Assembly: GCA_018825765.1 (NCBI GenBank)
Contig: JAHKAQ010000083.1
Span: 1 to 27,246, forward strand
Source: Patescibacteria group bacterium
GTDB taxonomy: Bacteria; Patescibacteriota; Minisyncoccia; CAIUEV01; JAHKAQ01
Length of the DNA stretch: 27,246 nt
Direction of reading: 5' to 3'
The notes under the pieces were generated by a model. It did not search any database. It was not told the origin of the DNA and saw nothing but the letters and a program-made list of their open reading frames with translations. The translations under genes were made by a program, and so were the position numbers. Position 1 is the stretch's first letter. Each line of letters begins with the position of its first letter. This document shows, one piece after another, positions 1-1,215 of the stretch.

Positions 1-205
<205 letters not shown>

Positions 206-989
206 AAACAATTGCTACTTCCTACCGTAAGGTAGGATGACAATCCGACTAATAACGGTGAAGCCTTCATTATTTATCTGGCTTTATGAAAAAAGCTTTA
301 TTTACGGTCCATTATAGCTTTGATATATTCAACTCAGGCCAGAAAAATATTAAGGTAATACCGTGGGAAGTTGTTCTAAAATTGATTTAGCGTATATTGC
401 TGGTTTTTTAGATGGCGACGGGAGTTTAATGATACAAATCAAAAAAAGAAACGATAGTAAAAAATATCGTTTCATGCTAACTATTTGTATGTATCAAAAT
501 ACTCGTCACGAAAAACCTTTGTTTTGGATAAAAAATAAACTTGGAATCGGTTATATTAGTAAACGCAATGATAATATTACCGAATTAAGAATCAACGGGT
601 ATAATCAAGTCAAAAAAATATTGACACTACTGATACCTTTTATCAAGTTCAAAAAAATTCAAGCCAAAACATTAATAGAATCAGCAAAATTACTCGAAAA
701 GAAAGAGTTAAAAAAAGCTGACTATCTAAAATTAGTCAATTACATAACTCTAGTTCAATCGACAAATTACACGGCTCGAAAAAAACGAACCAAACAGGAA
801 TTATTTCAAATTTTAGAATTAACCCCGTAACGACTTTATTCCACAATAATATTGGAATAGGATAGTGATAGAAAGAGCAGTTAAGAATGAAAACAAAAAC
901 AATCACTATAATACGTCGGCTCCTGTTTTTTCAAATTTTTAACAGGATGAAGATATAGTCTATACTCCTAGAAATAGGGGACATACGTG
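206..989 (+). mobile_element. Group I self-splicing intron (subgroup IA-like, with P7.1/P7.2), 784 nt, inserted after U2656 of 23S rRNA
   Basis: Removing 206-989 restores CTAGT|ACGAGAGGACC. The 5' exon ends in U and the intron ends in G989. Helices found by eye: P1 UAGU(202-205)/GCUA(214-217) with the U.G pair; P2 ccuacc-GUAA-gguagg (221-236); P3 ccgac(245-249)/gucgg(915-919); P4 acggug(255-260)/uaccgu(359-364); P5 gccuu(263-267)/aaggu(352-356); P6 ggg(365-367)/ccc(824-826); P7 gacu(832-835)/aguc(957-960); P7.1 837-859; P7.2 862-909; P8 921-947; S element AAGAUAUAGUC (950-960); P9 cuccua-GAAA-uagggg (965-980). Confidence 0.96.
363..830 (+). CDS. Intron-encoded single-motif LAGLIDADG homing endonuclease (I-CreI-like, presumably homodimeric), in loop L6
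   Basis: LAYIAGFLDGDGSL motif, followed by I-CreI-like YQ, LGIGYI and LIPFIKFKKIQA segments; 155 aa. GTG 363 is the only canonical start between the in-frame TAA at 351-353 and the motif. Confidence 0.93.
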   Translation: MGSCSKIDLAYIAGFLDGDGSLMIQIKKRNDSKKYRFMLTICMYQNTRHEKPLFWIKNKLGIGYISKRNDNITELRINGYNQVKKILTLLIPFIKFKKIQAKTLIESAKLLEKKELKKADYLKLVNYITLVQSTNYTARKKRTKQELFQILELTP

Positions 990-1215
990 ACGAGAGGACC
1001 GGGGTGAACCGACCTCTGGTGTACCAGCTGTTCCTGCCAAGGGCAACGCTGGGTAGCTATAGTCGGGTGTGGATAAGCGCTGAAAGCATATAAGCGCGAA
1101 GCCCAACCCAAGATTAGGTTTAGATCTCCTCAAAGACTATGAGGTTGATAGGACGCAGGTGTAAGAACAGTAATGTTTTCTAGCCGAGCGTTACTAATAG
1201 ATCGTTACCGCTTTT
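990..1215 (+). rRNA. rrl: 23S rRNA, 3' exon (about E. coli 2657 to the 3' end; end approximate)
   Basis: ACGAGAGGACCGG (SRL 3' half), GGATAAGCGCTGAAAGCATATAAGCGCGAAGCC (H97), GTTGATAGG, GGTGTAAG...GTAAT (H101), TACTAATAGATCG. The mature 3' end is uncertain by a few nt. Confidence 0.95.

Follow-up and report, generated by a model that had tools for sequence, protein, structure and literature searches.

The DNA analysed here (hereafter the window) comprises positions 1 to 27,246 of contig JAHKAQ010000083.1 (assembly GCA_018825765.1). It comes from a small-genome groundwater bacterium of the Patescibacteria, also known as the candidate phyla radiation (CPR). The start of the window falls within a bacterial 23S rRNA gene. 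Positions 1–1204 align with the Rfam large subunit (LSU) model RF02541 (233.9 bits, model positions 2479–2912), and the alignment is interrupted by a single 794-nt insertion at the sarcin-ricin loop (SRL). The 5' exon (1–205, plus strand) enters the Rfam model at position 2479, the contig start being intragenic, and ends with CCCCTAGT at position 205. The 3' exon (990–1204, plus strand) starts with ACGAGAGG at position 990 and carries the remainder of the SRL (ACGAGAGGACC). E. coli numbering was derived from an annotated E. coli 23S gene (L056), a 2906-nt copy in which every landmark stands two higher than in the canonical 2904-nt numbering. The last exon base corresponds to position 2658 of that copy, i.e. 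to canonical U2656. Hence, the insertion lies between canonical U2656 and A2657, the latter being the first base of the 3' exon. Judged from junctions, Rfam matching and covariation, positions 206–989 (plus strand) are a group I intron of 784 nt that follows exon base U205, ends with G989 as its omega-G, and is predicted to splice. Looped out of the intron after P4, at an L6-like position, is a homing endonuclease gene (363–830, plus strand) that codes for 155 amino acids with a single LAGLIDADG motif. We are highly confident that this is an I-CreI-family homing endonuclease gene carried by a group I intron at the SRL site; this judgement concerns the identity of the element and excludes the position of the two-fold axis on its target.

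The intron was compared across two sets of related loci, 13 from species genomes and 12 further SRL-site loci from a 400-genome sample of the phylum. P1 (202–217) joins exon UAGU (202–205) and intron AA (206–207) to UUGCUA (212–217) in an alifold prediction over 13 loci. The 5' splice site is the wobble U205·G214 within this six-pair helix, and both the wobble and the terminal G989 recur in the related loci that were read; the guide sequence TTGCTAC is conserved across related loci. Covariation marks out the P2 hairpin (221–236; 6 bp, GUAA tetraloop), all six pairs of which are retained in 22 of the 23 loci in which P1 was found, with many compensatory changes. The 5' strand of P3, CCGAC (245–249), pairs across the ORF (open reading frame) with GUCGG (915–919), thereby joining bases about 670 nt apart. 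All five P3 pairs form in 20 of 22 loci, in combinations as different as CCGAC/GTCGG, TCGGC/GCCGA, GTGGC/GCCAC and CCAAC/GTTGG. The 5' strand of P7, GACU (832–835), pairs with AGUC (957–960) within the conserved AAGAUAUAGUC; both P7 strands are conserved in all loci, and the AAGAUAUAGUC element together with P9 matches RF00028. The P8 hairpin (921–947, alifold) keeps its stem with altered sequence across loci. P9 (965–980, GAAA loop) is supported by covariation, with two-sided changes at five of its six pairs; over the 3' part as a whole, such changes affect 8 of 12 predicted pairs. All these elements are on the plus strand. An IA-like layout is suggested by additional hairpins that lie between P7 and the second (3') strand of P3.

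Two observations count against the intron assignment. The RF00028 match covers only the 3' half of the intron (857–981; 33.9 bits, E-value 1.5e–6) and, as the core is split by the ORF, does not reach the gathering score of 50. In a groundwater RNA run, neither the intron nor the unique flank had any depth, which means that the organism is not covered; the RNA runs contain conserved rRNA words only. A count of intron 5' ends by a loose pattern, aimed at ORF-less introns, was discarded since control matches were as frequent as real ones.

The segment just upstream of the endonuclease gene (352–365, plus strand) contains AAGG (352–355) as the proposed 3' strand of P5 and ACCGU (360–364) as the proposed 3' strand of P4. 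Alifold pairs GGUG...CCUU with AAGG...UACC. As these pairings are invariant, the P4/P5 assignment is inferred and has no covariation support. These proposed strands take in both the AAGG, which resembles a ribosome-binding site, and the GT of the GTG start codon. The intron core would then be unable to fold while the endonuclease is translated, and vice versa; the overlap may explain why the start conserved in nearly all SRL-site loci is GTG and not ATG.

The endonuclease ORF starts with GTG and contains neither a frameshift nor an internal stop. An in-frame stop at 351–353 leaves GTG 363 as the sole usable start; GTG also starts the gene in 11 of the 12 other loci of one set and in all 12 SRL-site loci of the other. 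Pfam assigns the product to LAGLIDADG_1 (PF00961; E-value 1.4e–11, 45.6 bits versus a cut-off of 23.1). A phmmer search of the PDB matched I-CreI chains (E-values of about 1e–15 to 1e–14, residues 6–151), I-CvuI (3e–14), I-MsoI (4e–13) and a single-chain I-MsoI (5.6e–27). The preliminary description of this DNA, made from sequence, had proposed an intact single-motif ORF of 155 amino acids and I-CreI-like family membership, and our searches bear out both. The LAGLIDADG motif (LAYIAGFLDGDG; 387–422, plus strand, residues 9–20) includes D19, the predicted metal-binding aspartate according to alignments with I-CreI-derived proteins and I-MsoI. An AlphaFold2 (AF2) model built with 39 homologues has a mean predicted local distance difference test score of 90.5. 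It shows the alpha-beta-beta-alpha-beta-beta-alpha order, with helices at residues 6–19, 51–60 and 80–93 and strands at residues 20–28, 35–46, 64–67 and 72–78. The alignment of these 39 homologues (61–73% identity) has 45 invariant columns, all of which are retained in the window protein; they include D19, Q45 and K97, the equivalents of I-CreI D20, Q47 and K98. By these comparisons, the window protein is a single-motif homing endonuclease of the I-CreI/I-MsoI branch with predicted nuclease activity. Its gene looks functional, although intactness by itself is weak evidence. The single motif, together with the cross-linking of I-ShaI, suggests that the protein would act as a homodimer.

More than 2000 homologues are present in the protein database; the best 120 are all 61–73% identical to the window protein and carry source names of Moranbacteria, Parcubacteria, Jorgensenbacteria and other CPR groups. 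The insertion point is the same throughout. Junctions identical to those of the window were found in 12 of the 13 species-genome loci (where readable) and in 10 of the 12 SRL loci of the phylum sample, while the remaining two (L037 and L038) have the same 3' exon start. In total, the 3' exon start is identical in all 24 readable related loci, and both junctions were read in 21 of them plus the window. The next similarity tier (35–43% identity) is inserted at L2593, the I-CreI site, with 3' exons starting CGTGAGACAG. A phylogeny with CPR LAGLIDADG proteins had been suggested in the preliminary description. In our maximum-likelihood tree the clades separate by insertion site, with a single split for each: one for the 24 SRL rows (support 93/89) and one for the 15 L2593 rows (100/100).

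The distribution of the SRL element is patchy. Among the 13 other species of the order to which the window belongs, the SRL is uninterrupted in 11 and the endonuclease gene is absent from all. In the phylum sample, the intact SRL 13-mer is present in 242 of 401 genomes and the SRL-site gene in 12. The locus with the closest endonuclease (L001) has host rRNA flanks only 80% identical to those of the window, whereas hosts with flanks 89–94% identical lack the intron. Of the SRL-site genes read, 23 of 24 are intact. The exception (L027, G245:C42; 64% identical to the window gene) has an in-frame TGA at the codon aligned with the invariant Arg29; this copy may be decaying, provided that TGA is not translated as an amino acid in that genome. 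Patchy presence within the order, the mismatch with host flank identity and the nonsense codon together form the pattern expected of a homing element, and the sequence comparisons thus fit a patchy, mobile-like SRL intron. In the DNA runs, depth over the intron allele is that of a single copy (53.5 versus 44.9 on the flank), and there is no demonstrable co-existing empty allele of the same strain, the joints observed coming from other organisms. Neither a further part of a 23S gene nor an intact copy of the SRL nor another LAGLIDADG gene is present in the rest of the assembly.

Several related loci stand out. L039 (G045:C1:763884-766412) codes for a 171-amino-acid relative (42% identity) on a long branch beside the L2593 clade. 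Its upstream rRNA match stops near E. coli position 2602 and the downstream match begins near 2713; the insertion may be at the catalogued 2604 site. Three same-family relatives with an intron-less SRL (L021, L022 and L023, from G008–G010) lack the helix-93 motif CGTGAGACAG at its usual place 61 nt upstream of the SRL and may carry an insertion at or near L2593 instead. Three further genomes with this intron are labelled 'uncultured Bdellovibrionales' (two) and 'Saccharibacteria' (one) (L003, L004 and L005). For L004, the nearest rRNA flank is that of a Moranbacteria genome (83%); a binning or naming error, rather than spread beyond the CPR, may therefore account for the Bdellovibrionales label. 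Saccharibacteria are nearly free of such introns (Tsurumaki et al., PMC11270868).

We infer dimerisation, cleavage, splicing and homing of this element along the following lines. In a 23S gene that lacks the intron, the protein homodimer would recognise a stretch of about 22 bp of uninterrupted SRL DNA and cut both strands across the four central base pairs, leaving 4-nt 3' overhangs. Repair from an intron-bearing copy would then copy the intron in. The intron-bearing allele would be immune because the insertion splits the site, and self-removal of the intron RNA would restore the SRL in the mature rRNA. That the target is uninterrupted SRL DNA, among the most conserved sequences known, had been put forward in the preliminary description; homing logic supports this, and cleavage is predicted. 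I-CeuI, I-PpoI and I-CreI cut rDNA well beyond their own hosts. The window's own site matches E. coli 23S rDNA from –6 to +13. In a natural host, L008, the reconstructed homing site is identical to E. coli 23S rDNA from –12 to +20, which makes cutting of distant rDNAs by an SRL-site enzyme plausible from sequence. Such a broad range is the behaviour expected of rDNA homing enzymes, which generally reside in highly conserved sequences (PMC2602781), and would not be new as an idea. As for action on the rDNA of a host cell, which had also been suggested, nothing points to secretion or to action on a host cell.

Where the enzyme would cut depends on the position of its two-fold axis. The preliminary description centred the homodimer on the insertion point, making GTAC (G2655–C2658) both the central four base pairs and the 3' overhang. 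The rejoined intronless target reads as was written there. We scored symmetry as matches out of 11 position pairs at 21 candidate centres, taking positions 3–11 as those contacted by the protein. About GT|AC, positions 1, 2, 4, 5, 7 and 8 are symmetric, as claimed, and GTAC itself is a perfect 4-bp palindrome. The resulting 6/11 is, however, not above chance, as 3.8% of all window positions reach it or better, and a centre 4 bp downstream (GA|GA) ties with it at 6/11 while having more of its contacted positions symmetric (6/9 versus 4/9 for GTAC). The precedent invoked, an I-CreI intron lying inside the central four, is contradicted by the literature: target positions –9 to –3 of I-CreI correspond to n.2588–2594, with the central four in a hairpin loop (Li et al. 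2012, PMC3315327). On this numbering, the L2593 intron is inserted between –4 and –3, at a distance of 3 bp upstream from the axis. The 3' exons of the CPR L2593 loci, which start at the C of –3, are consistent with this.

In I-CreI, the central four form the GUGA loop of helix 93 and positions ±3 its closing C2594/G2599 (PMC3315327). R68 reads guanine at ±5 and Q44 adenine at ±4, and R70 is listed together with R68 and K28 as a guanine-reading basic residue (PMC1635285). Shifting the SRL axis downstream by 4 bp from the insertion point puts it between A2660 and G2661; the GAGA tetraloop (G2659–A2662) then supplies the central four, and its closing pair, C2658/G2663, falls at positions ±3. No other register has C/G at both ±3, the position that R70 reads in I-CreI. 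In the SRL clade, the corresponding strand is GYISKRND, with an invariant Arg at the R70 position and Ser at that of R68, whereas the CPR L2593 clade has GYIRQRND with both Arg; the ungapped equivalence of R68 and R70 is backed by the AF2 strand boundaries. With the axis on GT|AC, position –3 is A, so the invariant Arg would meet guanine in one half-site only. Moreover, the left half would then consist mostly of variable stem. Conservation over 22 host sites is 13.9 and 21.7 bits for the two halves, unbalanced for a homodimer, versus 19.1 and 17.4 bits in the +4 register. It is only this balance that differs, as the summed conservation per 22-bp frame is nearly flat (35.6–36.9 bits).

We therefore lean, with confidence somewhat short of even, towards an axis 4 bp downstream of the insertion point, on the GAGA tetraloop, which would mirror the position of I-CreI on C-GUGA-G of helix 93. 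Several points weigh against this placement. It is one base off strict I-CreI geometry, which would put the axis at +3. The window's own L2593-type site (134–155, plus strand; the equivalent of the I-CreI/I-MsoI target, read from the sequence as empty and intact here) is matched at 10 of 22 positions in the GT|AC register, T/A at ±4 included, and at 8 of 22 in the +4 register, the core being equal (5/8). Residue equivalences in the beta1-beta2 hairpin vary between alignments. In the L2593 clade, Val occupies the Q44 position while the bases at ±4 are unchanged, which makes single-residue rules weak. The centre on GT|AC has background in its favour as well: GTAC is the centre of a palindromic site derivative that I-CreI cuts, and in certain LAGLIDADG enzymes (I-SceI, for example) the insertion point is within the central four. 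On balance, we regard a cut centred on the insertion point as possible but doubtful, and an axis in yet another register, such as +3, as comparably tentative. Two attempts to narrow the choice were abandoned. Similarity between the SRL and L2593 sites does not discriminate between registers (10/22 at offset 0, 8/22 at +4), and inference from outer contacts (equivalents of N30 and Q38) was dropped since the alignments disagree in the beta1-beta2 hairpin.

A different possibility is that the intact ORF no longer codes for an active nuclease: the homing gene may be decaying, or may have been kept for a product that assists intron folding as an RNA maturase. A 2026 survey (PMC13619312) found roughly nine out of ten putative LAGLIDADG enzymes to be inactive, and Tsurumaki et al. 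suggest ancient acquisition and vertical retention of these elements (PMC11270868). Within the clade, one member has the nonsense codon at the invariant R29 codon, and the window protein itself has His at the I-CreI R51 position; this substitution and the survey figure also count directly against our assignment of activity. The invariance of the metal-binding Asp and of the Q47 and K98 equivalents, along with the other invariant columns, speaks for retained function, as do the 23 intact genes out of 24. The patchy distribution (no gene in the 13 other species of the order, the nearest gene behind flanks of 80% identity) fits recent transfer, which requires an active enzyme. We consider loss of activity unlikely. 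It is also conceivable that the enzyme targets a different rDNA site, such as the empty L2593-type site, and that its residence in the SRL is incidental: the nearest other clade occupies L2593, and that site is intact in the window gene. Yet clade and site match without exception (SRL 24/24, L2593 15/15), and positions that contact DNA differ between the clades, as in the change from R68 to Ser. Targeting of another site thus appears very improbable, and we retain the uninterrupted SRL as the predicted target.

Base composition sets the intron apart from its surroundings: G+C content is 31% in the intron (206–989) and 29% in the ORF, against 50–55% in the rRNA exons and 42% in the remaining window. 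Just past the 23S gene, a strong GC hairpin followed by a T-run (about 1268–1296, within 1265–1300) is terminator-like on either strand. Downstream of the 23S 3' end, the whole window (1–27,246) contains no 5S rRNA gene.

The class to which this intron belongs is not new. In a survey of rRNA insertions in CPR bacteria, Tsurumaki, Sato, Saito & Kanai (J Bacteriol 2024, PMC11270868) found LAGLIDADG_1 ORFs at 23S positions 1917, 1931, 1952, 2593, 2604 and 2657. Position 2657, catalogued as 23IS14, is among the intron sites said not to have been reported previously in bacteria (PMC11270868). The window element shares with 23IS14 the insertion point, the intron type, the LAGLIDADG_1 ORF family and a CPR host. 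The sole enzyme tested by these authors was I-ShaI, from site 23IS7; the word 'sarcin' does not occur in their paper, which gives no target or cleavage model for the 2657 enzymes (PMC11270868). In the literature, we found no paper linking the sarcin-ricin loop, a group I intron and a homing endonuclease, and queries on L2656/L2657 gave unrelated matches only, among the matches listed.

Also among the closest known systems are I-CreI, I-MsoI and I-CvuI, homodimeric LAGLIDADG enzymes of chloroplast 23S introns at L2593. Like I-CreI (PDB chains of 152–163 amino acids), the 155-residue window protein has a single motif and conserves the equivalents of D20, Q47, K98 and R70; its ORF, too, is looped out of a group I intron, inserted in 23S domain V/VI, and the predicted target is a C-GNRA-G rRNA hairpin. 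In contrast to I-CreI, its predicted target is in helix 95, not helix 93, its host is a bacterium, the R68, Q44 and R51 equivalents are Ser, Cys and His, and the beta1-beta2 hairpin is hypervariable with indels. The CPR L2593-site clade (L040–L055) comprises the nearest relatives found (35–43% identity), comes from the same phylum and shares the GYI..R.D strand; it differs in keeping both Arg (GYIRQRND), in occupying the I-CreI site and in forming a separate clade (100/100). The window enzyme would resemble I-CeuI and I-PpoI in having a homing site conserved far beyond the host, but the rRNA sites of these two differ from its own (L1923 and L1925), and I-PpoI belongs to another enzyme family.

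These comparisons can be combined into a wider proposal, which we put forward as speculative and rather unlikely to hold in all its parts. The SRL clade would have arisen from L2593-type enzymes by a jump between analogous hairpins, from C-GUGA-G of helix 93 to C-GAGA-G of helix 95. In doing so, it would have retained a contact of the R70 type with the closing C:G pair and given up those made by R68 and Q44. The enzyme would now cut across the DNA of the GAGA tetraloop. As at least 15 bp of its site are universal, cleavage would extend to the 23S/28S genes of most bacteria, perhaps even to those of archaea and eukaryotes. Being an ordinary example of a catalogued CPR intron class, the window element matters little as a discovery. 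The predicted target of the SRL-site clade, however, overlaps the most conserved stretch of rRNA, and the position of the cut bears on whether I-CreI-type enzymes gain targets by hopping between similar rRNA hairpin loops. The clade may also provide a natural meganuclease that has a single site in each rRNA operon of a great many organisms and would be useful, like I-CeuI, in genome mapping.

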